From Candidatus Moraniibacteriota bacterium (GTDB lineage Bacteria; Patescibacteriota; Minisyncoccia; Moranbacterales; UBA1568): a stretch of DNA of 64,000 nucleotides. Shown in pieces: positions 6,801 through 64,000 of the stretch. Location of the stretch: contig JBBIRD010000001.1 in NCBI GenBank assembly GCA_037441965.1, forward strand, positions 2,255 to 66,254, given 5' to 3'. Numbering within the stretch: position 1 is the stretch's first letter; the number at the start of each line of letters is the position of its first letter. The notes beneath the pieces are model-generated. The model ran no database searches. It was not told the origin of the DNA and saw only the letters and a list, made by a program, of their open reading frames with translations. The position numbers and the translations under genes were made by a program.

Positions 6801-7313
6801 AATCTCACTACATATCACTTTGGTCGTGTTGATATTTTTTATAATACTGCCACGGGTATATATCCTACGAGCGCGAGCAATGCTAATGTGACTATGGTAC
6901 CAGAATCAAATTCGTATCTTGGATCTTCTCTTTCTGTTGGTGATGTAAATGCTGATAAAAAGGCAGATCTGATAGCAGATGTTGCGAATGGTGTCTTTGT
7001 TTTTTATAATGATGGAGCGTACCCAGATAATGCCTATCCGGATATACGATCTGTTTTTGAACCAGATCTCAGGCCGTCGGTCAAAGTGAATACCCCTCAT
7101 ATTTCTGTCGTCGGCGACTTCAATGATGATGGAAAGGGTGATATAGTAACAGGTATCGGTGAATATTATTACTATGGGCCACTCTATTCTCAACTACTCA
7201 ATACGACTGGCTATGTGACGACAACGATTTCTGAAGTTCGTACTATTGATCGTTTCCTTCGTCTTCGCTTACGAGGCACTGCGAAATTTCAGGGACAAAA
7301 TAGTATACGATAA
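831..7313 (+). CDS. Giant (2160 aa) membrane-anchored surface protein with more than 25 FG-GAP/integrin-alpha-like repeats
   Basis: There is an N-terminal TM helix (LLYVALLVVPLFVYIFW). The motif GDFNxDGKxDLAVGAP...GRVYIFY recurs throughout, as do Cys-x(4-6)-Cys inserts (FCTSSFPTLCSASNADV, FVCTTSPCTASDADV, TSCVGTPALCNASDADV). Confidence 0.8.
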   Translation: MVRISPKNILLYVALLVVPLFVYIFWQMSSPETIVKTVKKYEQAGEKVRQDLIKSPTLPIVEKENTYQVVDSSIEDISIQYAKYSESIPPKDDENNQQNEQKDHQNGEEKKPQDLFKKPTLSIDFPKNYSQPINIKLDAERMIDITDLSGTSDYSVSTIAREIPEKNDLSTSSINNPDRSLFRKSLEQKLFGIDIRKIFQKTPSEDTILHYTSRDGRKSLLYTFIKDPSTGEKTLKHWTLYEYGTGTEQEQYQFSNAKVKINAEGIAEVYYFGTQEIQNEKVKSEVSPDLLARAQRAMEKETGQDILLSRNNPDFTLPAPYYIDKNGEQHNAEWQWNADKQILSVKFDPERNMYPIALDPTLSFTAPGQSNSMSMITGSSPSSFAIGDFNNDGKNDLAVGADTVVIFYGGFTFSKSVDSADVVISSTSYDGVGFGAGLVAGDFDGDNKTDLLVLGSWGTWYDPDYAVYIFYNSSIRTGSYNNADFQNSSFRGRLSIGLGDLNDDGKKDLIIGEPNNRYKADSVYIYYAGIPLSSGPQVTLTGITDTDGGNLRGAFGSSFGVGDFNADGKNDIAVSAPAFGSYYNTGQYPGWYNTYQGRIYIFYGGSITTKNALSADRVIIGEAGGLGREISGVVDLNGDGYVDILTIDTGPQKLSMFYNNAGTISTPPDVSIASAFVYGATWNDFNGDGRADFAIINRFYSSIDIIYNDGDYPADMANADVRIGGQPVFYNKAHIVSSGDLNGDGQADIVTNSQDGSNTSILYSQNGQVNTNQYALGEASGDAFGTAMVAGDFNADGTTDLAVGAPAGSGHSSNTGRVYLFYNRGSYPRDASSADVIIDGGAIDDFFGFSLIAGDFNGDKKIDFAVGSPGSSLNTGSTYVFYADGTNDFGTIFCTSSFPTLCSASNADVILTGGLPGIGIGSSFGTTLTTGDFNSDGKMDLAIGATGYSSNTGSVSVFYAPFSGVNVTLTGENVNDLFGKALIAGDFNHDNRTDLAVGATGYSSATGRVYLFYNSGSTLPTTASLTITGSQTTQSFGYALAVGDFNADNSTDLVVGTHSDFLFPRMCTDDPSADFVIYYPCNYYDAGRVYIFYGDSTIPTTANTADIILDVNDLSATAQPRYFGSSLATGDLNADGKIDLVIGQPNYDGTTYVGLVRILYNDGALGTDVTIKGWSNNSFLGTSLVTGDFNANGRTNLVVGEGLSVGAGRISFFETRDNFVWNPQTLSLAEGATMKGDMLGQEQRISGSVNAELFGSSLASGDFNNDGKNDLAVGASGSSSLYIFYADGEYPVRSSDANVVIKGMSVTGLGTTLIAGDFNDDGKTDIATSNLESVYIFYNDGSYPLDAVTADVVIAGETAYSSGSAFGSSMVSEDMNDDGKKDLVIGSYGYSTSAFTATNTGRVYIYYANGTRNFVCTTSPCTASDADVIINGSEGSYFGYQIVTGDFNTDNKTDLTVSAPFLQTSNTGRVYIFYVDGTNNFGTTSCVGTPALCNASDADVTIMSEVISSMNIDGLGYSIASGDLNNDGKIDLAIGTQSYCYDDITQGCSGRMYLIYNQGSGIYPANAGGADVIIAGGQDSFLGRKIAIGDVNRDNREDLLVWRGDVTSTHYLDVFLNDGSGYPTNLSGIIESDVNFTYPAMTNDMDSSQVIFDDLNADGYQDLVISDIGFNGKGKISLYTTNDTSISGEATGNYFGSALAIGDFNADGKKDLAVGAPGYSSNTGRVYIFYNDNHLPSSAFLADAIITGETTGDQFGKSISLVDFNIDGEQDLVVGASGYSTSKGSVYFFANLGTGVYPVSASGRDTLIVGEADNNYFGEVLASDDMDHDGWADMVVGARGYLSNAGRVYMFYSDGVYPATSDLADSIITGETGILFGSALATGDFDRDGKKDVAVSAPGYSSNTGRVYIFYYNVGLGTFPSTVATANATITGSLYTLPVPCYFSCTAFDPYFGSALVSSDFNNDGKTDLAVGSYNYGFQNWDRDPMDIDANLTTYHFGRVDIFYNTATGIYPTSASNANVTMVPESNSYLGSSLSVGDVNADKKADLIADVANGVFVFYNDGAYPDNAYPDIRSVFEPDLRPSVKVNTPHISVVGDFNDDGKGDIVTGIGEYYYYGPLYSQLLNTTGYVTTTISEVRTIDRFLRLRLRGTAKFQGQNSIR

Positions 7314-7403
7314 GAAAATTATCTCTATCTTTTGATAGAATAATTGCGATAGCAGAAGATATGCCAGTGAGAAAGAGAAATAACTTGAGGAAGCAATGAA
7401 ACT

Positions 7404-9293
7404 ATGGAGATGAAAAGATTTTTTCTCAAAAAAAGAATACTCTATATTTGTTTTCTTCTTCTTTCTATCTTTATTGGGAATAAATTTTTTGATTATCAGA
7501 AAACAGCACAGCATCTTCAAGGAATAGAGAAATTACTTGCGTTAACATCTGAAGATTTAAATGATATTAAATCTGATCCTCATAAAACAAAAGAGTCAGT
7601 AAGGGAAGCAATCGATGCATATTCTCAGCATATTTCAGACACCCTCTCGATTGCTCAAAAAATAACAAATATGGAGGCTTCTCAGGAAGCGTTCGTTGCT
7701 ATCTTTAGGAAGGTTGCTTCACAATTGGGAGATATCCGAATGATTCAGCAGAATACTGAATTAACATCATCACAATCTGGAATTATTGAAAGAATAAGAG
7801 ATGTAAATATGTATGTGCAGGAGCAATCAGTAGAGCGACTCACAACACTCGCTCAGAGTGATAACGCTATAGACCAATCGAAAGAAGGGAAGAAGATAGG
7901 TGCATTACCCTCTTGTTCTGATTGCAATGTTATTCTTATCTCCCTTACCACTCTTCGTCCTGATCGTATGGGTATTTATGGATATCAGAAACAAACTACT
8001 CCGCATATTGACGCATTCTTCAAGAACTCAATTATCTTCAGAAATACGGTTGCGCCTACTTCTTGGACTACCCCAAATGCTCTATCACTCTTTACTGCTG
8101 TTTTCCCATACCGACATAACATTATTTCAAGAGAAATTGATCCGATTTACAATCGAAAAATTCTGACATTGGCAGAGATGCTGAAAAAAAATAATTATAC
8201 TACAGGGGCATTTACAGGAGGAGGGGATTATAATAATAAATACAGTGGACTCAACCGTGGGTTTGATTTCTACCTTGATGAAGCAAATTATAAGACATTC
8301 AAAATAAAAGCAGATATTTCTATCGGGACAGGCCCTCTTTTTTATTCTCCACTTCGAGAGTTTCTTCCGCTAGGAACCGATTGGATGGAACAGAATTATA
8401 AAAAAAAGTTTTTTCTTTTCTTGCAGGGATATGATCCTCACTGTCCTTTGAGTCCACGCGAACCATTTGCTCAGCAATTTACTAAAAAGATGAAAAGTGA
8501 TGTAGATTTTTCTGTATGTCATACAACATACGATGATACGGAGCCATTATATGAAAATGGAAAGAAATATTGGGAAGTAATGACGACATCAGATGGAACA
8601 AGAAGCCCTTTCAAGATGCGACTTTCTCAGGAAGATGTTGATTATATGAATGCTCTGTATGATGCTCGTGTGGCAGAGATGGATTTTTATTTAAATAATT
8701 TCTTTGAAAAACTCAAGAGTCTTGGTCTAGAAGAAAAGACGGTGATCGTATTGATGGCAGATCATGGAGAGATGCTCGGAGAACACGGACGGTTTATGAG
8801 GGGTGGCACTATTAGAGGAAACTCATATAAGCAATCTCTTCATTTTCCTCTTCTTATCAAGCATCCAAAAATAACAGAACCTCTCATCGTGGAGGATATT
8901 GTGAATACAGTGGATATTATGCCGACACTTCTTTCTATGTTGGATATAACAGATCCTCAGGAAGATATACGACAAGGTCACTCGCTTCATATCTCAAACT
9001 TCCAGAGTGATCCGACCAATGAATATGGTTTTTCAGGAGCCAAATATGAAAGGAGTAATGTGATTGGATATTTTGATTTTCCTACTGCATCTGAATCTGT
9101 TCAGGACAAGAAATGGAAATTGATCAAAGAAACTATCTTCGATAATGATGGTTTTTCAGTAGAAAAAATCTCATATAAACTCTTTGATCTTGAGAATGAT
9201 CCTAACGAGAACATCAATCTTTATGACGCAGAAAGAGAAGAAGCAGAGAAGCTCAAAGTTGTATTAGAGAAGTGGCTTGATCAATATCGATGA
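7404..9293 (+). CDS. Membrane-anchored sulfatase/LtaS-like enzyme of the alkaline phosphatase superfamily
   Basis: It has an N-terminal TM helix and the metal-ligand motif DHGEMLGEHG. Where a sulfatase has CxPxR, this protein has TTPN, which implies a Thr nucleophile as in LtaS/EptA; that reading is an inference. Confidence 0.65.
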   Translation: MEMKRFFLKKRILYICFLLLSIFIGNKFFDYQKTAQHLQGIEKLLALTSEDLNDIKSDPHKTKESVREAIDAYSQHISDTLSIAQKITNMEASQEAFVAIFRKVASQLGDIRMIQQNTELTSSQSGIIERIRDVNMYVQEQSVERLTTLAQSDNAIDQSKEGKKIGALPSCSDCNVILISLTTLRPDRMGIYGYQKQTTPHIDAFFKNSIIFRNTVAPTSWTTPNALSLFTAVFPYRHNIISREIDPIYNRKILTLAEMLKKNNYTTGAFTGGGDYNNKYSGLNRGFDFYLDEANYKTFKIKADISIGTGPLFYSPLREFLPLGTDWMEQNYKKKFFLFLQGYDPHCPLSPREPFAQQFTKKMKSDVDFSVCHTTYDDTEPLYENGKKYWEVMTTSDGTRSPFKMRLSQEDVDYMNALYDARVAEMDFYLNNFFEKLKSLGLEEKTVIVLMADHGEMLGEHGRFMRGGTIRGNSYKQSLHFPLLIKHPKITEPLIVEDIVNTVDIMPTLLSMLDITDPQEDIRQGHSLHISNFQSDPTNEYGFSGAKYERSNVIGYFDFPTASESVQDKKWKLIKETIFDNDGFSVEKISYKLFDLENDPNENINLYDAEREEAEKLKVVLEKWLDQYR

Positions 9294-42244: not shown

Positions 42245-42624
42245 AGAGAGTACGAATTGAGAAAGTGCTTTGCAGTACTTTTTTCTTTTCTCAAGAATAT
42301 TCTGTTGATTTTCCTGTCAAGTTATTTGTCAAACAGTTCTGAAGAAATATGTGTTTCTCTTTGTAATGAAGAGGTTCTACAAAGAGCAATATGTATTTCC
42401 GCAGAAGTGCCTTAACAACTTATGTCTTTTTCAAAAGAATCGAAGATTATATGGTAGCGGAAAGTGATCAGATTTTTTTGAGATAGTCTAAATAGAAAAG
42501 GTCAAGCAAATCATAACGAGAAAAAACAGTGCGTCGAATGAGCAAACATTCTTCACTGTTAACCGATTGTCCGTGAGCGTCTTTAGTTTCGATTAGAGCG
42601 TTTGCGGACAAGAGAAAAAAAGAA

Positions 42625-45550
<2,926 letters not shown>

Positions 45551-45675
45551 TCTTTTTTTCTAACCTTGTTTTCTTTTCGCAAGAAAAGAATCGAAGTTAC
45601 GGTTAGCAGTGAAGAGTGCTTGTTAAAAGGGGAATCTTATTCTATTATAGATAGACAAATTTGGAGGGGAATGTT

Positions 45676-45787
45676 TCCGGTGCTTCTAGCGTTGTGGACA
45701 CACCTGATCCCATACCGAACTCAGCAGTTAAGCACTTCAGCACCGATGGTAGCCTTTAGTGGCAAGAGTAGGACAGTGCCGGGAACA
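45676..45787 (+). rRNA. rrf: 5S ribosomal RNA
   Basis: CCTGATCCCATACCGAACTCAGCAGTTAAGC...GATGGTAGC is characteristic of 5S rRNA, and it lies about 125 nt after the 23S. Confidence 0.88.
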
Positions 45788-52638: not shown

Positions 52639-54603
52639 TTGAAAGGAATAAAAAATATGCAAACGAATTATTCGTTTCAAGGAAGGAAAGGCCAAAGTAA
52701 TTTTAGTAAACCTCTCTCGGCAGGGTCTTTTGAGGGTATTGTTGCGAACGCACAAGCACCCAAAGCAACACATAAGAATTATGTGCCAAAAAAAGATGTC
52801 AAGAAACAAAATAATCAGCCGAAGAAGTCTTCTGGTAAAAAAAATAACCAGAAAAATAATCGTCGTTTTCCGATGCCGATGAAGAGTCGTTTGGAATCGA
52901 CACATAACGGTATCAATGTTCCAGCTCTTGGTGAGAAGCGTCTCCGTATTATCCCTCTTGGCGGACAAGAAGAAGTCGGTCGCAATATGACTGTTTTTGA
53001 ATATGGGAATGATATTGTTCTGATCGATATGGGATTGCAATTTCCTGAGGAAGATATGCCAGGTATTGACTATATTATTCCGAATGTGAACTATCTGAAA
53101 GGAAAAGAGAAAAATATTCGTGGTGTTATTTTCACACACGGACACCTTGATCATATTGGAGCTGCCCCATTACTTCTAAAAAAATTAGGATATCCTCCAA
53201 TTATCTCTCGTGATCTGACACTGGCTCTTATTAAACATAAAGTGGAGGATCAAGAAAAAGGTGCAGGAAGTCGTCTCAAGATGGTCCGGATAAAAAATAT
53301 AACTGATCGTATTCGTGTTGGATCCTTTGAAGCTCGTTTCTTTGAAGTAGAACATTCTATTATGGATGCTATTGGTATTGTTCTCCTTTCACCTGTTGGA
53401 TCAGTGATTCATATGGGTGATTGGACAATTTCTCATAATCCAATCGAAGAAAAAGAAATTTCTTATAAACATCTGGCAAATCTACCAAGGCCGACAATAT
53501 TGATGCTTGAGAGTTTAGGAGCTTTGAAAAAAGGTCTTCCACCATCAGAGCAGGAAGTGCATCAGAATTTGAAAAATCTTATCAGAAGTGTTCCAGGAAG
53601 ACTGATTATTGGAACATTTGCTTCTCAGATTCGTCGCATAAGTTATCTTATTGAGTATGCGGAACAACTTGGAAAGAAAGTAGCGCTCGAAGGATATAGT
53701 ATGAAGATGAATATCGAAGTAGCCAAAGAACTTGGTTATATCAAAGTCAAGAAAGAAACACTGATCAGTGTAAACGATATTCATAAATACAAAGATGATC
53801 AAGTGGTCGTTATCTGTACTGGCGCACAAGGAGAATTGAATGCAGCACTCTCTCGTATTGTGACAGACAACCATCGATTTATTAAACTTCAGAAGAATGA
53901 TACTATTGTTTTTTCTTCTTCTGTAATCCCTGGAAATGAGCGCACGATTCAACGATTGAAAGATAATCTTTATCGAAAGTGTGACAATATTATCCATAGT
54001 GATATTATGGAAATCCATATCGGTGGACATTCGACTGCTCAGGGAATGGAAGAGATGCTCCGTCAGGTACAGCCGACATATTTTCTTCCTGTATATGCCA
54101 ATCATTATTTTCTGAAAGAAGCGGCAAAAATTGCTTATCGTATGGGTTTTCCAGAGAAAAATGTAGCAGTGCTTGATAATGGAAGTGTTTTTGAACTCGA
54201 TGATCAAGGAAGTTTTTCGGTACGAAAAGAGAAGGCTGATACGAGTTATGTTTTTATTGACGGACTCGGTATCGGTGATATCGGACATGTTGTATTGCGT
54301 GATCGTCAGGTATTGGCTCAAGATGGTATGATCGTCATCACTACCATTATCGATTCGAAAACAAAAAGTGTCGTTGGTAATATTCAGATTACTTCACGAG
54401 GGTTTATTCATGTGAAAGAAAACTTCGATCTCGTCAATGAAACAAAACGCAAAGTAGAAAAAGTTGTCAAAGACAATACTGCCAAAGATTCTTCGGTTGA
54501 TTTTGATCTCATACGCAATCAGATTCGTGAAGTTGTAGGGCAATTTCTTTTTACGAAGACTGAGCGTCGCCCGATGGTGTTGCCAGTGGTGATTGAAGTT
54601 TAA
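52639..54603 (+). CDS. rnj: Ribonuclease J (metallo-beta-lactamase/beta-CASP), with a basic N-terminal extension of about 85 aa
   Basis: The HTHGHLDHIGA motif and a beta-CASP region are present. The N-terminus is Lys/Asn/Gln-rich (KKDVKKQNNQPKKSSGKKNNQKNNRR). Confidence 0.85.
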   Translation: MKGIKNMQTNYSFQGRKGQSNFSKPLSAGSFEGIVANAQAPKATHKNYVPKKDVKKQNNQPKKSSGKKNNQKNNRRFPMPMKSRLESTHNGINVPALGEKRLRIIPLGGQEEVGRNMTVFEYGNDIVLIDMGLQFPEEDMPGIDYIIPNVNYLKGKEKNIRGVIFTHGHLDHIGAAPLLLKKLGYPPIISRDLTLALIKHKVEDQEKGAGSRLKMVRIKNITDRIRVGSFEARFFEVEHSIMDAIGIVLLSPVGSVIHMGDWTISHNPIEEKEISYKHLANLPRPTILMLESLGALKKGLPPSEQEVHQNLKNLIRSVPGRLIIGTFASQIRRISYLIEYAEQLGKKVALEGYSMKMNIEVAKELGYIKVKKETLISVNDIHKYKDDQVVVICTGAQGELNAALSRIVTDNHRFIKLQKNDTIVFSSSVIPGNERTIQRLKDNLYRKCDNIIHSDIMEIHIGGHSTAQGMEEMLRQVQPTYFLPVYANHYFLKEAAKIAYRMGFPEKNVAVLDNGSVFELDDQGSFSVRKEKADTSYVFIDGLGIGDIGHVVLRDRQVLAQDGMIVITTIIDSKTKSVVGNIQITSRGFIHVKENFDLVNETKRKVEKVVKDNTAKDSSVDFDLIRNQIREVVGQFLFTKTERRPMVLPVVIEV

Positions 54604-54663
54604 TCATAATAAGAAAAGAAGTTCTTAAGGACTTCTTTTCTTTATTTTCAAAGAACGCTTTCT

Positions 54664-55341
54664 TTGTGGTATAATAAAAACAGAAAGAAATATTTTATGT
54701 TTAAAAGAATTATTATTATTTTGAGTGTTGTTATCTTACTCCTTTTGGGGTTGTTTCTTTATCGTTATAATAAAAATACAAAAACTGATGTTCCAGAGCC
54801 TACTGTTACAGAAGCGAAACCAAAAGAATTAACAATGAAGAAAATAGAAACAAAACCAGCTCCAGAACAGGATACTGCTTCATTTTTTGGCACTGCAAAT
54901 TTTGAAAGTGAAAGTTTTCGAATTGGTGATATCGCTATCGGAGGAGAGTCGCAATTTCTTTTGAGTGAAGACACTCCTGATCCTCTCGTTATTACCAATA
55001 TCCGAGGAGAGACATTTACGGAGAAGAATAAACCGGAAGTGAAACTCATCATCACCTGGAAAACAAATAAACTTGCAAAATCGGATATCTCTTATGGGAA
55101 AGGGACAACACAAGCAAAGAAAACAGTGAACGAACCGGATTATACAACCAATCATAGTTTGATCCTTCCTGGATTAGAGCAATCGGCAACATATATCTAC
55201 ACAATCGTTTCAAGAGATCGATTTGGTAATGAAGTAACGAGTGATCAACATGCTATCTATACCGGAGCGAAAACAGTTTCGCTGTTTGATTTGATTGCAG
55301 GAGCGGTGGGTGATGTTTTCGGTTGGGCGGTGAAGAAGTAA
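54664..55341 (+). CDS. Membrane-anchored protein with a fibronectin-type-III-like domain
   Basis: An N-terminal TM helix precedes the segment ITWKTNKLAKSDISYG...LILPGLEQSATYIYTIVSRDRFGNEVTS, which resembles an FN3 or purple-acid-phosphatase N-terminal domain. Confidence 0.5.
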   Translation: MWYNKNRKKYFMFKRIIIILSVVILLLLGLFLYRYNKNTKTDVPEPTVTEAKPKELTMKKIETKPAPEQDTASFFGTANFESESFRIGDIAIGGESQFLLSEDTPDPLVITNIRGETFTEKNKPEVKLIITWKTNKLAKSDISYGKGTTQAKKTVNEPDYTTNHSLILPGLEQSATYIYTIVSRDRFGNEVTSDQHAIYTGAKTVSLFDLIAGAVGDVFGWAVKK

Positions 55342-55375
55342 ATATAAAGCAGTTTCGTTTTAAGATAAATCAGTA

Positions 55376-56380
55376 ATGGAAAATTGTATGAAACAACGAA
55401 TTTTTTCTGGAATAAAACCATCAGGCGATCTTCATCTCGGAAATTATCTGGGTGCTATTTCTCAGTGGGTTACTCTTCAGAATGAGTATGAATCATTGTT
55501 TTGCGTCGTTGATCTGCATGCTATCACAGTGAGTCAAGATCCGATTGAGCTTCGTCAAAAGACATTAGAAATCGCTAAGATTTATTTGGCTTCGGGTATT
55601 GATCCTACGAAATCAGTGATGTTTGTCCAATCGCATATACCAGAACATACAGAACTTGCTTGGATACTGAACACTATTACACGCTTTGGTGATTTGGAAA
55701 AGATGACACAATTCAAAGATAAATCAGCAAAAAGCGAAAAGGAAACTGTCGGCATCGGCCTTTTTGATTACCCTGTTCTGATGGCGAGTGATATTTTACT
55801 TTATGATACTCAGATTGTTCCTGTTGGTAAGGATCAACTTCAGCATATCGAACTTACACGAACATTAGCACGGCGTTTTAACGAGCGTTTTGGTGAAGTA
55901 TTTGTTATTCCAGAAGGAAGAGTATCGAAAGAGGGTGAGGTAATTATGGCACTCGATGATCCAACAAAGAAGATGTCTAAATCAGCTCGGAGCGAATATA
56001 ATTCTATTGCTTTAACTGACGATGCTGATGCAATACGACGGAAGATAAAAAAAGCAGTTACTGATAGTGGAAGTGAGATTGTTTATTCTGATGATAAACC
56101 AGCACTCAAGAATCTGATCAATATTTATTCTCTTCTTTCTCATACAACAACCGCAGATATTGAAAGAACTTATCAGGGAAAAGGATATGGCGATTTCAAA
56201 ACAGATTTAGCTGAAGTAATTGTGAATTTCTTGATACCATTTCAAGATCGTATGAAAAATATTTCTGATGATGAAATTATCTCTCTTTTGAAAACTGGCG
56301 CCGAAAAAGCCAAAGAAAGAGCGGAAGCAAAAATGAAACAAGTGAGAGAGAAAGTAGGATTTCTTCTTGCAAAAGAATAA
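55376..56380 (+). CDS. trpS: Tryptophanyl-tRNA synthetase
   Basis: It has the HIGH-region sequence IFSGIKPSGDLHLGNYLGA and KMSKS. Confidence 0.9.
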   Translation: MENCMKQRIFSGIKPSGDLHLGNYLGAISQWVTLQNEYESLFCVVDLHAITVSQDPIELRQKTLEIAKIYLASGIDPTKSVMFVQSHIPEHTELAWILNTITRFGDLEKMTQFKDKSAKSEKETVGIGLFDYPVLMASDILLYDTQIVPVGKDQLQHIELTRTLARRFNERFGEVFVIPEGRVSKEGEVIMALDDPTKKMSKSARSEYNSIALTDDADAIRRKIKKAVTDSGSEIVYSDDKPALKNLINIYSLLSHTTTADIERTYQGKGYGDFKTDLAEVIVNFLIPFQDRMKNISDDEIISLLKTGAEKAKERAEAKMKQVREKVGFLLAKE

Positions 56381-56388
56381 AAAAAATA

Positions 56389-56423
56389 CCCGTGATCAGT
56401 TTCTGATACGGGTGTTTTTTTAT
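56389..56423. terminator. Bidirectional rho-independent terminator after trpS
   Basis: The ACCCGTGATCAG/CTGATACGGGT stem is flanked by AAAAAAA upstream and TTTTTTT downstream. Confidence 0.65.
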
Positions 56424-56667
56424 TCGTGTTGTCTTTTCTCTGCTTCTTCGCGAAATGGTGCACAAATAGTACCGTCACATTCTGCATTACCATGGTGTAA
56501 TTTCCATGATCGTGCAGTGAGTGCCGTGCAATAACAGCGAAGCCGAAGAGGAGGTTTCTTCTCTGTTTGATTTTCTTGATATATCAAATGAGTAATAATG
56601 CTTGAGTTTTCAAGATATGTATTCATTATGCGTCCTTTCGAAAAAAATGTTAATGAACAAATGGGAT

Positions 56668-56696
56668 ATAAAAAAACCACCTTTGTAGGTGGTTTA
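56668..56696 (-). terminator. Minus-strand terminator downstream of the PMM/PGM gene
   Basis: On the plus strand, AAAAAAA is followed by an AACCACC/GGTGGTT stem, which gives a hairpin plus U-run on the minus strand. Confidence 0.5.
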
Positions 56697-56846
56697 GAAG
56701 AAAATAAATTGAAAAAGAGAATAGATGATAAGTTTTCTCTTTTTGAATATTTTCTTGCTCATATTTTGATACCTAGTATACTCTGAAAAAGATAGATATA
56801 CAATATCTTGTCAAGAGTTGCTATAGGAATAGGATACATAAGAGAT

Positions 56847-58181
56847 TTACTTGCGTATAAGAGAGAGGATCTCTTTTTGTTTTTCTTCCATCATTTCTAT
56901 AGTTTTTGCTTCAAGATTGAGACGAAGGAGCGGTTCGGTATTGGATGGACGAACATTGAACCACCAATCAGGATAATCTACTTTGAGTCCGTCGAGCGTG
57001 CTGATTTGTCCATCGCTGTATTTCTCCTGCAACGCTTTAAGGATGATGTCTTTATCTGTTACTTCACTATTGATTTCTGCCGAGTGTGCATAGCGTCTAA
57101 GATCAGAAACGAGTTCAGATATTTTCTTTCCTGTTTCCGCCATTAGATTGAGAAGAAGAAAGGCAACGAGAGTACTAGCCTCAGCGAAAGAGTTTTCTTC
57201 GAAGTAATAATGTCCGGAAAGTTCACCAGCAAAAATAGCTCCGTCTGCGCGCATTTGTCTTTTGATAAAAGCATGCCCAACACGACATTCTTTGGCGGTG
57301 CCACCATTTTCTTCGATGACTTCGCGTACAGATCGAGAAGAACGGAGATCATAGAGAATAGTTGCACCTGGTTTTTTCTGAAGAATAATCTTCGCAACAA
57401 GTCCTGTAATGAGATCCATCGGAATAACCGTCCCTGTTTCATCAGTGAATCCGACGCGGTCAGCATCACCATCATAAGCAATACCGAGATCAGCGCCTAC
57501 TTCTTTTACTGTGGCACAGAGTTCATTAAGCGTTTCTGTTTTGAGAGGATTGGCTTCATGACACTGAAAGGGGTGAGTAAGGTCATTGTAGAGATTGACG
57601 ATGGTAAGATTGTCAGGAAATTTCTCGTACATTGGAAGTTCGAAAACGCCCATAGAATTGGCGGTATCGATAGCAACAGTAAATTTTTTCTCACCGAATT
57701 CTGCGAAAGAAGAAAACTCTGCATAATATTCTGGACGGATATCATAAGTTGTCATCGTTCCGGATACATCAGACTTTTCCAATGTATTCTGAAGGGCAAT
57801 ATCACGAATTTCACGAAGACCAGAATCTTCTCCGACTGGTAGAGCGCCTCGAAGAGCGATTTTGAGTCCATTGTATTCGATAGGATTGTGTGATGCAGTG
57901 AGGGAAACTACCGCATCGACATCGAGATGACCAGCAGAAAAATAGACCATCGGCGTACTGATCACGCCAAGATCGACGACATCGCACCCGCTATCCATAA
58001 CGCCACGAGCGAAACTTTCAAAAAGCGCTGGACTTGATGGACGAATGTCACGACCAATACCTATCTTTTTTGATTTGAGATATGCGACAACAGCACAGCC
58101 GATAGTATACACATCTTCTTCATTGATATCGGTTGGATACACACCACGAATATCGTAGGCTTTAAAAATTTCTTTTTTCAT
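56847..58181 (-). CDS. Phosphomannomutase/phosphoglucomutase (alpha-D-phosphohexomutase)
   Basis: It has the active-site phosphoserine loop TASHNP and the metal-binding DGDADR motif. The product is 444 aa. Confidence 0.85.
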   Translation of the reverse strand: MKKEIFKAYDIRGVYPTDINEEDVYTIGCAVVAYLKSKKIGIGRDIRPSSPALFESFARGVMDSGCDVVDLGVISTPMVYFSAGHLDVDAVVSLTASHNPIEYNGLKIALRGALPVGEDSGLREIRDIALQNTLEKSDVSGTMTTYDIRPEYYAEFSSFAEFGEKKFTVAIDTANSMGVFELPMYEKFPDNLTIVNLYNDLTHPFQCHEANPLKTETLNELCATVKEVGADLGIAYDGDADRVGFTDETGTVIPMDLITGLVAKIILQKKPGATILYDLRSSRSVREVIEENGGTAKECRVGHAFIKRQMRADGAIFAGELSGHYYFEENSFAEASTLVAFLLLNLMAETGKKISELVSDLRRYAHSAEINSEVTDKDIILKALQEKYSDGQISTLDGLKVDYPDWWFNVRPSNTEPLLRLNLEAKTIEMMEEKQKEILSLIRK

Positions 58182-58304
58182 AGAGTTACAGAAAATAGAT
58201 AAGAATGATACATTTTATTATAGCATATTTTCCTTAAGAATACTCATTTTTTGACGCATTGCCTTTTTTCTGCGAATATAGAATATATTATTTATTTTTC
58301 TTTT

Positions 58305-59354
58305 ATGGCACTTAAAGTAGGTATTGTAGGACTTCCCAACGTCGGAAAATCGACGCTTTTCAAGGCACTTACGCGTAAGGTGGTTGATATCAATAATTAT
58401 CCTTTTTGCACTATTGAACCCAATGTTGGTATTGTTGAAGTACCGGATGAACGATTAGGAAAACTTGCAAAAATGTCAGGAACGAAAAAGATTATTCCTG
58501 CGGTGATAGAATTTGTTGATATTGCAGGACTCGTGAAAGGAGCAAGTGAAGGCGAGGGCCTCGGTAATAAGTTTTTGCAAAATATTCGTGAAGTTGATGC
58601 AATTGTCGAGGTAGTGAGAGTTTTTGAGAATCCTGATATTATTCATGTTCACAATGCAATCGATCCGACAAATGATATAGAAATTATCAATACTGAACTC
58701 ATTCTTGCTGATTTAGAAACAATTACGAAGCGCAAACTTAAAACAGGTAAGGATGCTAGAGCAGGGAAAAAGGAGGCGGTAACAGAGATGAACATTCTTG
58801 AGAAATTAGAGAAAGAGTTTGAAGCAGGACGATTGCCACATACTCTGCTCAAAACTTTCTCTGTAGAAGAAACAAAGATGGTAAAGAATTTACAGCTTCT
58901 CACAACAAAACCGTTTCTCTATGTATACAATGTCTCTGATATCGATCGTCCATTGAATGCAGATCTTGAGAGTCGTCCTTATGTGAAGCTTGATATCAAG
59001 ATAGAAGAAGAGCTCATCGAGATGTCGCCAGAGGAAATACAAGAAATGGGACTTGTTTCGCATATTGGTGATTTGGCACAATCAGCGTACTCACTCCTTG
59101 GGCTTATGACATATTTCACAACAGGTGTCGAAGAAACGCGTGCTTGGACAATACCTATCGGATCGACAGCTCCGCAAGCAGGCAGTGCTATTCATAATGA
59201 TTTTGAAGAGAAATTTATTCGTGCTGAAGTTATCCATTGGAGCAAACTTCTTGAAGCGGGTTCATGGAGTAATGCCCGTGATACTGGCATCCTCCGCCTC
59301 GAAGGAAAAAACTATATCGTCCAAGATGGCGATGTCATTGTTTTTAAGATATAA
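58305..59354 (+). CDS. ychF: Ribosome-binding ATPase YchF (Obg-family GTPase)
   Basis: It contains [19 protein letters not shown] and [12 protein letters not shown]. The start is probably at 58305, not the track's 58251. Confidence 0.88.
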
Positions 59355-59371
59355 GATAATGGTATATTTTT

Positions 59372-61945
59372 ATGAATGAAAAGAAAAGAATACTTTTGTG
59401 TTATTTTGGTGTATCACATTTTTCTTATACTCCTACAGATATAGGTTATATTGTAGCTATTTTAGAACAGAAATTTTCATCAACAGAGTATATTTTTGAT
59501 ATCGTTCAATTAGATTATGAATTATCTGTTGATAGAAAAGAGGGTTCGATTGTTAATCCTCATCTAAAATATATTGAAAGAAGTACGCGACTTATTGAAT
59601 ATTATCATCCATACGCAGTATTTTTCTTCTTAGAGAATGTCTTATGGAGTAAAGTGTTTGCACTAGGAAGAACAAAGAGTATTGCTAAGAATCTTCGTTC
59701 TAATAACCCAAAATTATTTATTGGTTTACAGAGTTTTAAGATTCAACAAATACAAATAGATCAAGTGTTAGATAACAATTTAGCGGATTGTATAATTATC
59801 GGTGACCCAGAAGAATTATTTCTAAAATTGAGCGAGATATTATTGAGAATGCCTGTCATTGGAGTGAGATATCAAAAACAATTTGGTGAAATGAACTATA
59901 AGAAGCAGTCTTTCCTTATGGCAAAAGAAAACGTAGAGACTATTTCAGTTGGTAGTCTTGATCGAATACCTTCTCCGTACCTAAATCATACTTTTGATAA
60001 TTTTCTCCAATCATCACAAATAATATCTAATGGACATTTTCGAGCATTCCTCGTTTCATCTCGAGGGTGTCGTTTTGGTTGTTATTATTGTTTTCGGAGT
60101 ACAAAATTTGAAAAGATACAATATTTTTCAGCAAAACGATTTTATGATGAATTAGAATATTTATTTAATACTTTCCGTATACATCATTTTTTTGTTTTAG
60201 ATGACGCTTTTATTTATTCTCGAAAACGCTTAGAGGAATTTGAACATGAGTTTCAAACTCGATTAAATAAGAATCCTGACTTACAAAAAGTAGATCTTTT
60301 CGTTATGGCAAGACCAGAAAGCATAAACGAGGAAATAGTAAAAATATTGAAAGCGATGAATGTAAAGTATATACAGATTGGATTACAGACAGTAAATCCG
60401 TCTTTGCAGGTTTTTATGAGAAGGAGACAAGATGTGGTTCATTTTGTGAAAATCAGAGAGTGGTTAAAAAAGTATAACATCCTTTTGCATCTAGATGTTG
60501 TGATTGGTTTACCGGGAGATTCTGTTGAATGGATGAAGGAAACAATGCGTTATGTATTACTTATGGATCCATTTTCTGTTCAGATTAAGCAGTTTTATCT
60601 CGGACCTAATACGCTTTTTTCAATTAGAACAAAAGAATACAATATTAAGATTGATGATACTGAATCAAGTTTTAATACACCATATGTGATCAGTGCAAAC
60701 AATATAGATGATCAGTATTTTACAGAGACAAATCATTTCATTATGAATCAAATCAAGGATAATCCACAGATTCGGTGGAAATATTTATCGAAGAAGCAAT
60801 CATTTATTAGTGGTTTATCTACAAAGATTTCTTCGGAGCATGAAACATCTCTTCATAATGAGCATAGAGGTTCAGACGATCGGATTCAGAAATACTTTAA
60901 TGTTTTATGGCATATAGGCAGCAGTAAAGGTAAGAATAGTGTATATGTGGTAACAGCAGTAGATGATCAGTACGCTTATATTGTTTCGCGTTCTGCAACA
61001 ATTTGTATGGCAATAGATCAATTATCAGGGTGTATAGTATGGAAATTTGAAGTTTTTTCCTTCCAAACGGATCATATATCTCCTTATCTTAAGGTGTCTG
61101 CAGGCAAAGTATATTTTCGAGCAGTCGATCGAAATCTGTATTGCTTAGATGCAAAAAATGGAAATCGCTTATGGGTTTTTCTTGAAGAAAATGTAGAAGA
61201 TGATACTTGTGTTATTGATCAATATGTCCATTGTATATCTATTGTTACATCAGGTGGTCTTTTTACACGAAGAAAAAAAATAGTAACTTTAGATATGAGA
61301 ACTGGTAAGAAGAGATGGGAACATTTTATTAGTATTGATCAATCAATAGCCTTGATACATGATGAAAAGAATCACTTTATGTATATTCGTGAGGGTGACA
61401 GGCAGGTTTCTTCGGTACAGATAGAGAATCATAAATTAAAGTGGACACATTGTTATTATCAGAATATAGACGGGCAGATAGTTATTGATCAATCAGGAAA
61501 GGATCTTTTCTTTTTATCTACTGATGGAAAGCATTATTCTATAAAAACAAAAGACGGATCCACGGAAATGCTTTTTCAATCGCGTGGATTTGATAAACAA
61601 TCTATTCTCTTTGTATATAATGAATATATTATTTTATATTCGTGTAATAAGGGAATACAATGCATTCATCTAAAGACAGGAATGATTCGGTGGATATACT
61701 CTTTGAACAGCGTTACTTCTGTAAATTATGTGGTACTAGATGCAAGTATGTTTATTTATAAAGAAGAGGATTTACTCATTGAGATTGATATAGTGACAGG
61801 AATGACAAAATCGTGTTTTTCCCTGACGGGTATTGGTCAAGATAGTATTCTTATATATAGCGAAAAAAAGAAACGCTTTTTCTTATCTATGAATTCTGGT
61901 GATTTATTTTGTTTTTCAAGACAGATGTTCTCACATTTACGATAG
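59372..61945 (+). CDS. Radical SAM enzyme with a B12-binding-like N-terminal domain, fused to a C-terminal PQQ/BamB-like beta-propeller of about 350 aa
   Basis: The CxxxCxxC motif SRGCRFGCYYCF is present, preceded by a Rossmann-like N-terminal domain. The C-terminus has 7-8 PQQ-type blades (LYCLDAKNGNRLWVF, IVTLDMRTGKKRWEHF, IHLKTGMIRWIY). Confidence 0.75.
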   Translation: MNEKKRILLCYFGVSHFSYTPTDIGYIVAILEQKFSSTEYIFDIVQLDYELSVDRKEGSIVNPHLKYIERSTRLIEYYHPYAVFFFLENVLWSKVFALGRTKSIAKNLRSNNPKLFIGLQSFKIQQIQIDQVLDNNLADCIIIGDPEELFLKLSEILLRMPVIGVRYQKQFGEMNYKKQSFLMAKENVETISVGSLDRIPSPYLNHTFDNFLQSSQIISNGHFRAFLVSSRGCRFGCYYCFRSTKFEKIQYFSAKRFYDELEYLFNTFRIHHFFVLDDAFIYSRKRLEEFEHEFQTRLNKNPDLQKVDLFVMARPESINEEIVKILKAMNVKYIQIGLQTVNPSLQVFMRRRQDVVHFVKIREWLKKYNILLHLDVVIGLPGDSVEWMKETMRYVLLMDPFSVQIKQFYLGPNTLFSIRTKEYNIKIDDTESSFNTPYVISANNIDDQYFTETNHFIMNQIKDNPQIRWKYLSKKQSFISGLSTKISSEHETSLHNEHRGSDDRIQKYFNVLWHIGSSKGKNSVYVVTAVDDQYAYIVSRSATICMAIDQLSGCIVWKFEVFSFQTDHISPYLKVSAGKVYFRAVDRNLYCLDAKNGNRLWVFLEENVEDDTCVIDQYVHCISIVTSGGLFTRRKKIVTLDMRTGKKRWEHFISIDQSIALIHDEKNHFMYIREGDRQVSSVQIENHKLKWTHCYYQNIDGQIVIDQSGKDLFFLSTDGKHYSIKTKDGSTEMLFQSRGFDKQSILFVYNEYIILYSCNKGIQCIHLKTGMIRWIYSLNSVTSVNYVVLDASMFIYKEEDLLIEIDIVTGMTKSCFSLTGIGQDSILIYSEKKKRFFLSMNSGDLFCFSRQMFSHLR

Positions 61946-62034
61946 TTATCACAGAGAGACATTGCTATATTTACTCATTTATGTTATTTTAAGAAAGGAG
62001 TTTTTTATATTTAATTTTTTTAACATATTTTTGT

Positions 62035-62247
62035 ATGTTGTACAAAATAAAGAAAAGAACATTGTTCGTCTCAGGGGTATTCCTTCTGAGTTTGCTGAGT
62101 TTTTTAAACATAAATAATAAAGAGCGTATCTCACGATCTACCGTAAACTTTATACCAGAAGCGAATGCTGATGTTCCATATTGTAGTCCTTGCGGATGTC
62201 CTTATACACCGCAAGAGTGTTCGGGAGATGCAGGAGATGGAATTTAG
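62035..62247 (+). CDS. Small (70 aa) Cys-rich peptide with an N-terminal signal/leader-like segment
   Basis: A positively charged and then hydrophobic N-terminus (KIKKRTLFVSGVFLLSLLSFL) precedes the C-terminal core CSPCGCPYTPQECSGDAGDGI. It lies 90 nt after the rSAM gene and 27 nt before the next gene. Confidence 0.45.
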   Translation: MLYKIKKRTLFVSGVFLLSLLSFLNINNKERISRSTVNFIPEANADVPYCSPCGCPYTPQECSGDAGDGI

Positions 62248-62274
62248 TTATAATTTTTTAGAATTTCCTTATAT

Positions 62275-63162
62275 ATGGATAAATATAAAATAAAATTTTT
62301 GCTCCTCTTTTTATTGATTCTTGTTCTAGTATGTTTTGCATATTTCTTCTTCAAGTTCAAGAAACCATCTGTACCTATTGATGAAACATATGTTCTTGGT
62401 AAACAAAACGAATTATATAGTTTTAATGATTCTTCACAATCCAAAGTAGAAGTAATAAAAGAATTAAAAGATGTTTCTTTGGATACAAAAATAAACACAA
62501 AAACAAGGCTATTAGCAGGAACAGTGGTCGTTGGATCTTTTTTTGATTTTGGTATGCAATTAGAAAAAGGATTTTCTCCAAATTCTTTTACCGAAAGAGA
62601 GATCTATGAATATTCTAAACAAATAAATTCTTTAGGTAATTCGAAAACAGATTTACTGACAGCATATATTGGTTTGACATTTTATCCTCAAGAGATGACT
62701 GCTGAATCAGTCTCTTCTCTTCTCCGTTCATATCAAGAATATGCAAAGAATCTATCCTCTACAGATACAGATTGTTCTGGGGAATCCAAGTTTGCTTCTG
62801 TGTTGTATTTGTCTCAGAAAAACAATCTCACCCCTGTTATTGATGAGTTTGGTAATTATTTTGATGCTTTTGAGCGAGCAGATAATTTATGTCGTACAAA
62901 TCGCAAGAAGAATGTTTTTAGGCAATTTATGTGGTTAGCTGCTTTGAGTGATATTGGTAAATCTTCTAGAGAAGAAGAAAAGGCTCAGGAAATTGTTCAA
63001 TTTCTGATCGATAAAGAAAATTTGGTCAGTAAAGCAACATTATCGCAATACCTTAAAAATAGTTACTTTGCTTCTAAGAAAGAGCCTGATACTGTTATCA
63101 TTGTTGATCGATTGATTGCAAAATATCCAGCATTTAAATCTTTCGTAGAGAGTTTACAATAA
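62275..63162 (+). CDS. Hypothetical membrane-anchored protein in the rSAM cluster
   Basis: It has an N-terminal TM helix and I recognise no motifs. Spacing is tight on both sides. Confidence 0.5.
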   Translation: MDKYKIKFLLLFLLILVLVCFAYFFFKFKKPSVPIDETYVLGKQNELYSFNDSSQSKVEVIKELKDVSLDTKINTKTRLLAGTVVVGSFFDFGMQLEKGFSPNSFTEREIYEYSKQINSLGNSKTDLLTAYIGLTFYPQEMTAESVSSLLRSYQEYAKNLSSTDTDCSGESKFASVLYLSQKNNLTPVIDEFGNYFDAFERADNLCRTNRKKNVFRQFMWLAALSDIGKSSREEEKAQEIVQFLIDKENLVSKATLSQYLKNSYFASKKEPDTVIIVDRLIAKYPAFKSFVESLQ

Positions 63163-63194
63163 TATCTCCTATTTTTCTATCTGTACCTTTGATT

Positions 63195-64000
63195 ATGCAA
63201 ATGAAAAATGCATCTTTGAATTTTTTAAAGACAGAAATTGAAAAGCAATGTTTTGAAACAATTAATGATAATGAAATACTACGTCAGTCATTTCCTCATA
63301 TGAAATGGTTGTTTGATTTCCGAATGATGATTTTGAAATCAAATTACCTTAATCTTATTAGCGAAATATTTTGGGAGAAATATCATAATCACAAGCCTTT
63401 TCAGATTGGTGGGTTAGAGATGGCTGCTATACCTCTTGTGTCAGCTATTTTGATGAAATTTCATGAACACGGAAGAGAGCTAAATGGTTTCATAATCAGG
63501 AAGTCAAGAAAAAAAACTGGTTTGTTGAAGATGATTGAAGGTGAAATTACTCACGAGCCAATTATTCTTATTGATGATTTAATCAATTCAGGTTCGAGCA
63601 TCTTGAGGCAAATTGATGTTTTAGATCAATTGAACAGGCGTGTAGATGAGATTTTTGTAATACTTCGATTTCGAGATAAAGAACACTATTCGTTTCTGCA
63701 GGAGAAGAATATAGTTCTTTATTCTCTTTTTGAGTTAGATGATTTTACAGATACTCTATTCATCTCTAATCTTAAAGAAAGTATAGAAAATAATCAGGGT
63801 ATTCAAAATCCATTCGAATCAAATCCTGTGTGGTATTTTCAAGGGAAATCACCAAATTATTTTTTTGTTTTTCCAAAATCTGCACCAATTGTTTGTGGTA
63901 ATAAAGTTTTTTTTGGTACTGATGACGGGACATTTTTTGCGTTAGGAACAGATAGGGGAGATATACAATGGACATATAAGATTTTATTTGGATCGCAAGG
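63195..64000 (+). CDS. Type I phosphoribosyltransferase (PyrE-like) fused to a PQQ-like beta-propeller, 3' partial
   Basis: It has the PRPP-binding motif PIILIDDLINSGSS and a C-terminal PQQ-type blade FFALGTDRGDIQWTYK. The frame is open to the window end. Confidence 0.6.
   Translation, partial: MQMKNASLNFLKTEIEKQCFETINDNEILRQSFPHMKWLFDFRMMILKSNYLNLISEIFWEKYHNHKPFQIGGLEMAAIPLVSAILMKFHEHGRELNGFIIRKSRKKTGLLKMIEGEITHEPIILIDDLINSGSSILRQIDVLDQLNRRVDEIFVILRFRDKEHYSFLQEKNIVLYSLFELDDFTDTLFISNLKESIENNQGIQNPFESNPVWYFQGKSPNYFFVFPKSAPIVCGNKVFFGTDDGTFFALGTDRGDIQWTYKILFGSQ

Follow-up and report, generated by a model that had tools for sequence, protein, structure and literature searches.

The four genes at the end of the analysed DNA form a real, conserved unit that most likely modifies a small exported peptide with a glycine/aspartate-rich tail. 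The enzyme pair involved consists of a radical SAM enzyme and a phosphoribosyltransferase (PRTase), each carrying a propeller domain, and no published description of such a pair in peptide maturation could be found. The window, i.e. the whole stretch of 64,000 nucleotides that was analysed, is derived from a Candidatus Moraniibacteriota bacterium (contig JBBIRD010000001.1). An earlier sequence-only reading had proposed that two unrelated catalytic domains fused to the same kind of propeller, next to a Cys-rich small peptide, resemble a RiPP-like peptide-maturation system or a small-molecule/cofactor modification system. The observation was confirmed and the RiPP-like reading was supported, although its emphasis on the cysteines needs correction. 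The features are listed in Table 1. The gaps between the four genes are 89, 27 and 32 nt, g4 is open to the window end (268 codons), and the radical SAM motif SRGCRFGCYYCF and the 4-Cys motif of the peptide CSPCGCPYTPQEC are both present.

Table 1. Positions of the genes and of their parts in the window.
Position	Strand	Feature	Details
59372..61945	+	g1, class-B-like radical SAM enzyme fused to an 8-blade PQQ/BamB-type beta-propeller	857 aa
59372..59881	+	g1 N-terminal predicted Rossmann-like (cobalamin-domain-like) region	aa 1-170
60068..60091	+	CX3CX2C radical SAM cluster motif of g1	C233, C237, C240
60896..61921	+	g1 beta-propeller	aa 509-850; 32 strands = 8 blades in the AF2 model
62035..62247	+	g2, precursor-like peptide	70 aa; Lys-rich hydrophobic N-terminus (aa 4-24), A-N-A|D motif (aa 43-46), 4-Cys core (aa 50-62), Gly-Asp tail (aa 63-70)
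62221..62244	+	Gly-Asp-rich C-terminal tail of g2, shared with all related peptides	SGDAGDGI
62275..63162	+	g3, membrane-anchored all-alpha helical-repeat protein	295 aa; two invariant Cys (C167, C206)
63195..63809	+	g4 PRTase domain (PyrE-like type I phosphoribosyltransferase)	aa 1-205
63810..64000	+	Start of the g4 PQQ-type beta-propeller, cut by the window end	full-length relatives are 535-572 aa

To verify the domain assignment of g1, profile searches and structure prediction were combined. Pfam gave Radical_SAM (PF04055; E=8.4e-19, aa 228-394, 68.8 bits against a gathering score of 29.5) and PQQ_2 (E=1.6e-16, aa 512-730, 61.1 bits against 27.6). The AF2 model (pLDDT 84.8, pTM 0.81) showed the Rossmann-like domain with an alternating strand/helix pattern, the radical SAM barrel at ~200-480, a disordered linker at 482-506 and the propeller. 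Foldseek matched the model to BamB (TM 0.76-0.79 of target) and to the cobalamin radical SAM enzymes TokK, CysS and TsrM, and profile searches of the PDB gave CysS (1.2e-15) and TokK (5.1e-15), the TokK alignment starting at profile position 92. However, no Pfam B12-binding (PF02310) hit was obtained on g1, only the remote relatives P0050-P0054 carrying this domain, and cobalamin binding is therefore unsupported by Pfam. The three cysteines of the CX3CX2C motif are the only invariant ones in 30 relatives and no SPASM Pfam hit was found, which indicates that there is no SPASM/twitch cluster.

For g4 the best NCBIfam match was pyrE (TIGR00336, E=5.5e-18), but with 65.3 bits against a cut-off of 106.8 the protein is PyrE-like and not PyrE. 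The Pfam Pribosyltran score of the truncated copy in the window was only 20.6 bits against 26.3. Nevertheless, the PRPP-binding loop (IILIDDLINSGSS) and the basic flexible loop (IRKSRKKTG) are conserved in all 15 aligned proteins from 15 loci. The start of the propeller matched the PRTase-propeller of the related locus L001 with 49% identity over 61 aa, and weak PQQ_2 and ACSF4 hits were also obtained. The protein g3 has an N-terminal TM helix followed by 14 helices and no catalytic fold, whereas g2 belongs to no Pfam or NCBIfam family. A search with the PADLOC models of anti-phage defence systems yielded only generic domain-level hits (PDC-M51A, 57 bits on the radical SAM core; retron PRTase_III-A, 26 bits).

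To examine whether the genes belong together, their neighbourhood was studied in related loci (designated L followed by a number). The same gene set recurs in permuted order in independent contigs at 35-57% protein identity, which is far more than chance. The radical SAM family and the PRTase-propeller co-localize in 17 distinct loci (the window, L001, L004, L005, L006, L008, L009, L011, L013, L018, L020, L022, L069, L070, L071, L075 and L079), including Gracilibacteria, Peribacteria and Moraniibacteriota MAGs and one locus with respiratory-chain and carboxysome genes. The two genes are often adjacent or overlap by 4 nt (L008, L009). The fusion of radical SAM domain and propeller is clade-specific: it is absent in most lineages, and in L075 it is split into adjacent genes for a radical SAM protein (490 aa) and a propeller (360 aa). 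The latter is the best relative of the g1 propeller (150 bits). The PRTase-propeller, in contrast, is the constant partner, although it is absent within 10 kb in the three exporter-type loci (L003, L012 and L078). The two propellers belong to one paralogous family, as radical-SAM-linked and PRTase-linked propellers score a median of 124 bits against each other, against at most 38 bits between the window propeller and any PDB chain.

Peptides homologous to g2 were found in L001, L004, L006, L069, L070, L075 and L076, sharing the hydrophobic N-terminus, the A-x-A motif and the Gly-Asp tail, of which D68 and G69 are invariant. The Cys-rich core that was stressed in the sequence-only reading is not the conserved feature, as three of the homologous peptides have no Cys. 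Instead, the Gly-Asp-rich segment and the A-x-A motif are conserved, although the peptide of the window has the weakest Gly-Asp tail of the family. Gly-Asp segments also follow the radical SAM family outside this clade. In L003 (cultured Propionivibrio dicarboxylicus) and L078, (GD)10 and (GD)12 come directly after LDEELRWIAGG-type double-glycine leaders next to a C39-ABC exporter. In L013 a GD run of ~150 aa lies in a >2396-aa protein just downstream of the radical SAM and PRTase-propeller genes, and acidic Gly/Asp tails occur in L005, L008 and L009. No Gly-Asp peptide was found in the fetched parts of L011, L071, L018 and L022. In 47 control stretches (446 kb), made up of 46 unrelated radical SAM loci and the first 50 kb of the window, only weak off-frame windows appeared, none of which is a repeat or a C-terminal tail.

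Independent support for a RiPP-like function came from the genes that relatives add to the same operons, i.e. a SagD-type YcaO (133 bits) plus a nitroreductase, SbtM/ACGX-like SPASM radical SAM enzymes or ThiF, and from the loci with a C39-peptidase ABC exporter and a double-glycine-leader precursor. The Cys content of the peptides tracks these enzymes: the peptides without Cys (L001, L070, L075) have no YcaO or SPASM enzyme nearby, whereas the Cys-containing peptides of L004, L069 and L006 do. No YcaO or SPASM gene occurs within the 64 kb of the window, although its peptide has four Cys. As the window ends inside g4, a downstream YcaO or dehydrogenase copy cannot be excluded.

Taken together, the four genes are best explained, with moderate confidence, as a conserved post-translational peptide-maturation (RiPP-like) module. 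In this proposal g2 is the substrate, its hydrophobic, Lys-rich N-terminus acting as a leader or export signal that ends at the A-x-A motif. The Gly-Asp-rich tail would be recognized, and probably modified, by the two cytoplasmic enzymes, and the paralogous 8-blade propellers would dock this segment, taking the role that RRE domains play in other RiPP pathways. Against the proposal, an RRE (PqqD-like) domain was not found in g1, g3 or g4 in the Pfam and NCBIfam searches, and neither a protease nor an exporter is visible in the window. The radical SAM domain would then carry out radical chemistry on or near the tail, for which C-methylation of Asp or Gly is the best guess and sugar-radical chemistry an alternative. 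The PyrE-like domain would transfer a 5-phosphoribosyl group from PRPP to the peptide or to a radical-SAM-generated intermediate, although no precedent for peptide phosphoribosylation by a type I PRTase could be found. The four cysteines are probably handled by an additional enzyme outside the window, a YcaO/dehydrogenase or a SPASM enzyme as in relatives. Finally, the peptide would be exported and cleaved near A-x-A, with g3 holding or chaperoning it at the membrane. The binding or modification of the Gly-Asp segment, the docking by the propellers, both chemistries and the order of events are inferred, without biochemical evidence of any modification. Moreover, the hydrophobic N-terminus could anchor the peptide in the membrane with its tail outside the cell, out of reach of cytoplasmic enzymes unless modification precedes insertion.

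It is possible, although doubtful, that the PRTase-propeller is a non-catalytic adaptor that binds the peptide, and perhaps a nucleotide or PRPP, and presents it to the radical SAM enzyme and, where present, to YcaO. This would be analogous to the catalytically dead E1-like C protein of thiazole/oxazole (TOMM) systems, and only the radical SAM enzyme and the accessory enzymes would change the peptide. In L004, L018, L022, L069, L071 and L011 the PRTase-propeller sits in the operon position next to YcaO and the nitroreductase-type dehydrogenase, and no E1-like or ocin-ThiF partner is seen. In addition, the scores to PyrE models are below the curated cut-offs and the exporter-type loci do without the protein. 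The conservation of both catalytic loops is, however, unusual for a dead enzyme, and the protein is also present in loci without YcaO (L001, L070, L075, L008, L009, L013 and L079).

It seems unlikely that two separate functions merely travel together. In that case the peptide, g3 and, in relatives, the TPR protein and a 480-490-aa polytopic membrane protein would form an envelope or secretion-related unit for Ca-binding acidic peptides, whereas the radical SAM enzyme and the PRTase-propeller would act on a small molecule such as a nucleotide or sugar phosphate. In agreement with this, peptide, g3 and the membrane protein occur together on the short contig L076 with no enzyme visible, and the TPR and membrane proteins are conserved with the peptide in L001, L070 and L075. 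The two invariant Cys of g3 suggest an extracytoplasmic disulfide, and class-B-like radical SAM enzymes also act on sugars and nucleotides (an AprD4 hit was obtained). On the other hand, Gly-Asp peptides or proteins accompany the radical SAM family in lineages that lack g3 entirely (L003, L078, L004, L006, L009 and L013), and the neighbouring enzymes in relatives are peptide-modifying.

Slightly less likely still is a pathway for a peptide-derived cofactor or small molecule, like PQQ or mycofactocin, in which the conserved C-terminal residues would be cross-linked by the radical SAM enzyme, excised and given a phosphoribosyl group to make a nucleotide-like cofactor. The combination of a small peptide with a conserved C-terminus ending in a hydrophobic or aromatic residue (I, F, Y), a radical SAM enzyme and a nucleotide-building enzyme would fit, and many carriers are MAGs of small-genome CPR lineages (Gracilibacteria, Peribacteria, Moraniibacteriota). 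This alternative fits poorly with the export-type N-termini or the double-glycine leaders with C39 ABC exporters. Furthermore, the Gly-Asp segment can be N-terminal in the core or internal in a giant protein, tail length and sequence vary, and g1 has no SPASM or PqqD partner. A chance neighbourhood with a non-coding small ORF is effectively refuted by the comparative data, because, although no Shine-Dalgarno-like sequence lies close upstream of any of the four genes and promoter and terminator scans were uninformative, the gene set is conserved through rearrangements and the small ORF is conserved at protein level in at least 8 loci, with an identical copy assembled independently (L074).

Among known systems, g1 is structurally closest to the class B radical SAM enzymes TokK, CysS and TsrM, with which it shares the barrel with CX3CX2C and, as predicted, an N-terminal Rossmann-like domain, whereas by function the RiPP C-methyltransferases PoyB/C, the bottromycin methyltransferases and ApyD would seem to be the nearest. 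NCBIfam gave weak hits to rSAM_ocin_1 (45 bits) and ApyD (29 bits), all scores being far below the family cut-offs (53 bits or less against 250-750). None of these enzymes has the C-terminal 8-blade propeller, the substrate of g1 appears to be Gly-Asp-rich, and its family forms a small separate group of about 49 clusters among 5.8 billion proteins. The PRTase domain resembles orotate phosphoribosyltransferase, both loops apparently aligning with E. coli PyrE and PDB OPRTase hits having E~2e-7. It differs in its fusion to a propeller, in the hood region (a conserved WLxDxR) and in being genomically tied to a radical SAM enzyme and peptides, not to pyrimidine genes. The propellers resemble those of BamB and PQQ dehydrogenases in having eight four-stranded blades, but they are cytoplasmic enzyme fusions with no lipoprotein signal and no evidence for PQQ binding.

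With TOMM/LAP clusters (SagB-type dehydrogenase, SagC and SagD/YcaO) the relatives L004, L018, L022, L069, L071 and L011 share a SagD-type YcaO and a nitroreductase-family dehydrogenase in the same operon, and their peptides contain Cys. A tblastn search with YcaO and nitroreductase queries from L069 and L071 found neither within the 64 kb of the window, and no E1-like C protein or RRE was found. The constant genes for the radical SAM enzyme and the PRTase-propeller also occur without YcaO, and the conserved peptide element is Gly-Asp, not Cys/Ser/Thr. PQQ and mycofactocin have in common with the cluster a small peptide with a conserved C-terminus next to a radical SAM enzyme, but differ from it in the features considered above. 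Double-glycine-leader bacteriocin/RiPP systems are matched by L003 and L078, which have a textbook LxxELxxIxGG leader, a C39-ABC exporter, an HlyD-type adaptor and a CAAX-type protease around the same radical SAM family, whereas the peptide of the window instead has a hydrophobic signal-like N-terminus with an A-x-A motif.

The four co-directional ORFs lie exactly where the sequence-only reading had placed them (see table), with gaps of 89, 27 and 32 nt between them. To establish the nature of g1, the protein was compared with Pfam, which confirmed Radical_SAM (E=8.4e-19) and PQQ_2 (E=1.6e-16). NCBIfam placed the N-terminal two thirds among B12-type radical SAM families (PhpK, KedN5, HpnJ, rSAM_ocin_1 and ApyD), although always far below the family cut-offs, and a profile built from 30 relatives hit the solved cobalamin radical SAM enzymes CysS and TokK at about 1e-15. 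In the AF2 model (pLDDT 84.8, pTM 0.81) a Rossmann-like domain (aa 1-170) is followed by the radical SAM barrel (aa ~200-480), a disordered linker (aa 482-506) and 32 beta-strands, i.e. 8 blades (aa 509-850). A Foldseek search with this model returned BamB and TokK, CysS and TsrM side by side. Only the CX3CX2C cysteines are invariant, so there is no SPASM/twitch cluster. The g4 product is PyrE-like (TIGR00336, E=5.5e-18, 65 bits against a cut-off of 106.8) and enters a propeller before the window ends; a search with the g4 protein returned only partial relatives. Promoter and terminator scans were uninformative. The GC content drops to 0.31-0.32 over the cluster, against 0.34-0.44 in the rest of the window, which may mark an accessory or acquired region.

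Positions of the features in the window and in related loci (L numbers)
Locus	Position	Feature	Size
Window	831-7313	ORF at the start of the window, without a Gly-Asp run	2160 aa
Window	42620-45784	23S rRNA and 5S rRNA; no 16S rRNA in the 42 kb upstream, the rRNA genes therefore being unlinked	
Window	52639-59354	Housekeeping genes (RNase J, TrpRS, phosphomannomutase, YchF)	
Window	59372-61945	g1, radical SAM-propeller	857 aa
Window	60001-64000	Region of lowered GC content	
Window	62035-62247	g2, peptide	70 aa
Window	62275-63162	g3	295 aa
Window	from 63195	g4, PRTase-propeller, running open off the window end	
L001	4255-6471	TPR protein and polytopic membrane protein	~250 aa and 480-490 aa
L070	3196-6858	TPR protein and polytopic membrane protein	~250 aa and 480-490 aa
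L075	784-3151	TPR protein and polytopic membrane protein	~250 aa and 480-490 aa
L076	1544-3025	TPR protein and polytopic membrane protein	~250 aa and 480-490 aa
L077	368-1186	TPR protein and polytopic membrane protein	~250 aa and 480-490 aa
L003 (Propionivibrio dicarboxylicus DSM 5885, NZ_FNCY01000022.1)	3815-4291	Double-glycine-leader precursor with (GD)10	
L078	about 5500-6100	Double-glycine-leader precursor with (GD)12	
L008	15136-15906	TM-anchored acidic-tail protein with a mini-intein	
L009 (Peribacteria MAG)	6256-8818	FkbO/chorismatase-like protein with a RidA domain, and protein of unknown function	the latter 499 aa
L013	11625-18815	Giant protein directly after radical SAM and PRTase-propeller	more than 2396 aa

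To examine whether the genes form a conserved unit, relatives of the radical SAM protein were collected, of which there are about 49 among 5.8 billion proteins. Nine clusters, including that of the window itself, carry the propeller, and the contigs of these propeller-bearing relatives show the same parts in shuffled order. In L070 the order is peptide, g3, PRTase-propeller and radical SAM-propeller, and it is the same in L001 except that a 117-aa ORF on the opposite strand lies between the last two. In L069 a nitroreductase, YcaO and the PRTase-propeller are on one strand, whereas the peptide, g3 and the radical SAM-propeller are placed divergently on the other. In L075 peptide, g3 and PRTase-propeller are followed by a radical SAM gene (490 aa) and a separate propeller gene (360 aa), which is the split form of the fusion found in the window. 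Housekeeping synteny is shared between the window and L071, L011 and L010, and in those relatives YcaO, PRTase-propeller and radical SAM-propeller are interleaved with the housekeeping genes rather than forming one tight island. Beyond this clade the radical SAM enzyme stands alone, but the PRTase-propeller stays next to it, or within about 6 kb, in L004, L005, L006, L008, L009, L013, L018, L020, L022 and L079. Together with the window and the propeller-bearing loci this makes 17 distinct loci, for which record titles name Gracilibacteria, Peribacteria and Moraniibacteriota MAGs. The propellers of the two enzymes are paralogs: radical-SAM-linked versus PRTase-linked propellers score a median 124 bits, the same as radical-SAM-linked propellers score among themselves (119.5 bits), whereas the window propeller scores at most 38 bits to any PDB chain.

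To find out in which context the enzymes occur in relatives, neighbouring ORFs were clustered and searched against Pfam and NCBIfam, and the companions point to peptide maturation. A SagD-type YcaO (133 bits) plus a nitroreductase-family dehydrogenase lies beside the PRTase-propeller in L004, L018, L022, L069 and L071, and L011 shows the YcaO, its contig ending inside that gene. One to three SPASM radical SAM paralogs, with SbtM, ACGX and GeoRSP as best hits, were found in L005, L008 and L009, and SPASM-like radical SAM ORFs in L004 and L006. Besides, L006 contains ThiF, and L018 an ATP-grasp enzyme and a methyltransferase. In L003 and L078 the stand-alone radical SAM enzyme (52-53% identical to g1) follows a C39-peptidase ABC exporter in clusters with the order HlyD-type adaptor, GNAT, precursor, TraB/PrgY, C39-ABC and radical SAM, with a CAAX protease nearby in L003. 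An FkbO/chorismatase-like protein with a RidA domain and a 499-aa protein of unknown function are conserved upstream of the radical SAM enzyme in L009 and in two further loci, L014 and L015. In the YcaO-less loci a TPR protein and a polytopic membrane protein with a Cys-rich loop, for which no Pfam or NCBIfam hit was obtained, travel with the peptide and g3. The membrane protein of L001 is not a divergent YcaO. No YcaO, nitroreductase, SPASM, TPR or 480-aa membrane protein gene was found anywhere in the 64-kb window. The g3 protein showed no homology, by BLASTP or hhalign, to the TM-anchored helical or TPR proteins that follow the peptide in L004 and L006, and these are analogous at best.

Homologous small ORFs sit in the cluster in the window, L001, L004, L006, L069, L070, L075 and L076. 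The last of these loci uses UGA as a sense codon; UGA falls on the invariant Gly of the g3 'AG' motif, which fits genetic code 25 (Gracilibacteria/Absconditabacteria type). The peptides share a Lys-rich, hydrophobic N-terminus, an A-x-A motif about 20-35 residues from the C-terminus (ANA, AHA, VHA, ASA, AQA and AQA, followed by D, D, D, T, D and Q respectively) and a Gly-Asp-rich tail (SGDAGDGI, SDSDGGDGF, GSCGGGDGI, GDGSDGGDGGEF, GDGDGAGGDGI, GGDGDGGDGSSRY, GDDGAGGN, and SSTSDSDY in L004). Cysteine, which the sequence-only reading had named as a feature of the peptide, is not conserved. L001, L070 and L075 have none, and no YcaO or SPASM gene was found in the sequence retrieved around them, whereas L004 and L069 (YcaO plus dehydrogenase) and L006 (ThiF plus a SPASM-like ORF) do have Cys. 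The window peptide has four Cys although no such enzyme lies in the 64 kb, and one is therefore predicted beyond the window end.

To assess whether the Gly-Asp link reaches beyond this clade, the more distant loci were scanned for similar segments. L003 encodes MKGKKMDIEREEELETKTTTIAGIRVLLDEELRWIAGG followed by (GD)10EGADATCSDCGP..., a textbook double-glycine leader followed at once by the repeat. The layout is the same in L078, but here the repeat lies in a frame missed by the gene caller, which had called a 67-aa 'VTVTVT' ORF in the wrong frame. The giant protein of L013 has a ~150-aa Gly-Asp run (aa ~440-585) followed by many DxNGDGxxD calcium-type repeats; a Hint-like stretch read by eye in this protein was not confirmed by Pfam. 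L005, L008 and L009 have TM-anchored proteins with acidic Gly/Asp tails, and that of L008 carries inside its Asp/Gly-rich tail a mini-intein (...GDDDGDDDAS, then CFVAGT...VVHN, then CGDDDDDSDDDG), for which NCBIfam intein_Cterm scored above its cut-off and Pfam found Hint and Intein_splicing. This is an odd host protein for an intein. In 47 control stretches (446 kb: 46 unrelated radical SAM loci plus the first 50 kb of the window) the same scans revealed only a few weak windows in high-GC off-frame ORFs, none of which was a repeat or a C-terminal tail. The segment can be C-terminal, N-terminal in the core, or internal, which argues for a recognised or modified motif rather than a positional signal.

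The mechanism can only be inferred. As the PRTase catalytic loops (RKxRK and DDLINSG) are conserved in all 15 aligned proteins, an active PRPP-dependent transferase is favoured over a dead adaptor. The radical SAM enzyme resembles C-methylating class B enzymes, but sugar-radical enzymes such as AprD4 are also among the hits, and the exact chemistry cannot be derived from sequence. Both enzymes need cytoplasmic cofactors, so modification must come before export. The A-x-A motif looks like a signal-peptidase-type site, but it lies 13-30 residues after the hydrophobic helix. The g3 protein, with its TM anchor, a peptide-binder-like solenoid and two invariant Cys, probably holds the peptide at the membrane. 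A role in defence was rejected because PADLOC gave only generic hits.

If the inference holds, it defines a new precursor family (Gly-Asp-rich tails or repeats) and a new substrate-recognition solution (propeller fusions) for peptide maturation, and it brings a phosphoribosyltransferase into RiPP-type chemistry for the first time. Several carriers are MAGs assigned to CPR/Patescibacteria lineages, where specialised metabolism is thought to be scarce, and an exported modified peptide there could matter for their interactions with hosts. The host of L003 is cultured, so that the radical SAM half of the system is experimentally tractable. It is possible, although on present evidence unlikely, that the system represents a new class of ribosomal peptide and protein modification, in which Gly-Asp repeats would be recognised by dedicated 8-blade propellers rather than by RRE domains and then modified by a PRPP-dependent peptide phosphoribosyltransferase working with a class-B-like radical SAM enzyme. 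The product would then be a phosphoribosylated, possibly radical-rearranged, acidic peptide, a chemistry not known for any RiPP, and the system would be used across several CPR/Patescibacteria lineages and some larger-genome bacteria.

No curated family matches the peptides, g3 or the fusion proteins. No description of a PRTase in RiPP biosynthesis, of a radical SAM-propeller fusion or of Gly-Asp-repeat precursors was found in the literature searched, which lacks most subscription-journal papers, so that this is absence of evidence only; the reported conversion of Asp to aminomalonate (PMC12186529) uses unrelated enzymes. In comparison with known systems, the cluster appears to work like a RiPP pathway, which in relatives is combined with TOMM-type or SPASM-type tailoring, but it falls outside PyrE, the SPASM enzymes, RRE-dependent recognition and, within the window, TOMM.
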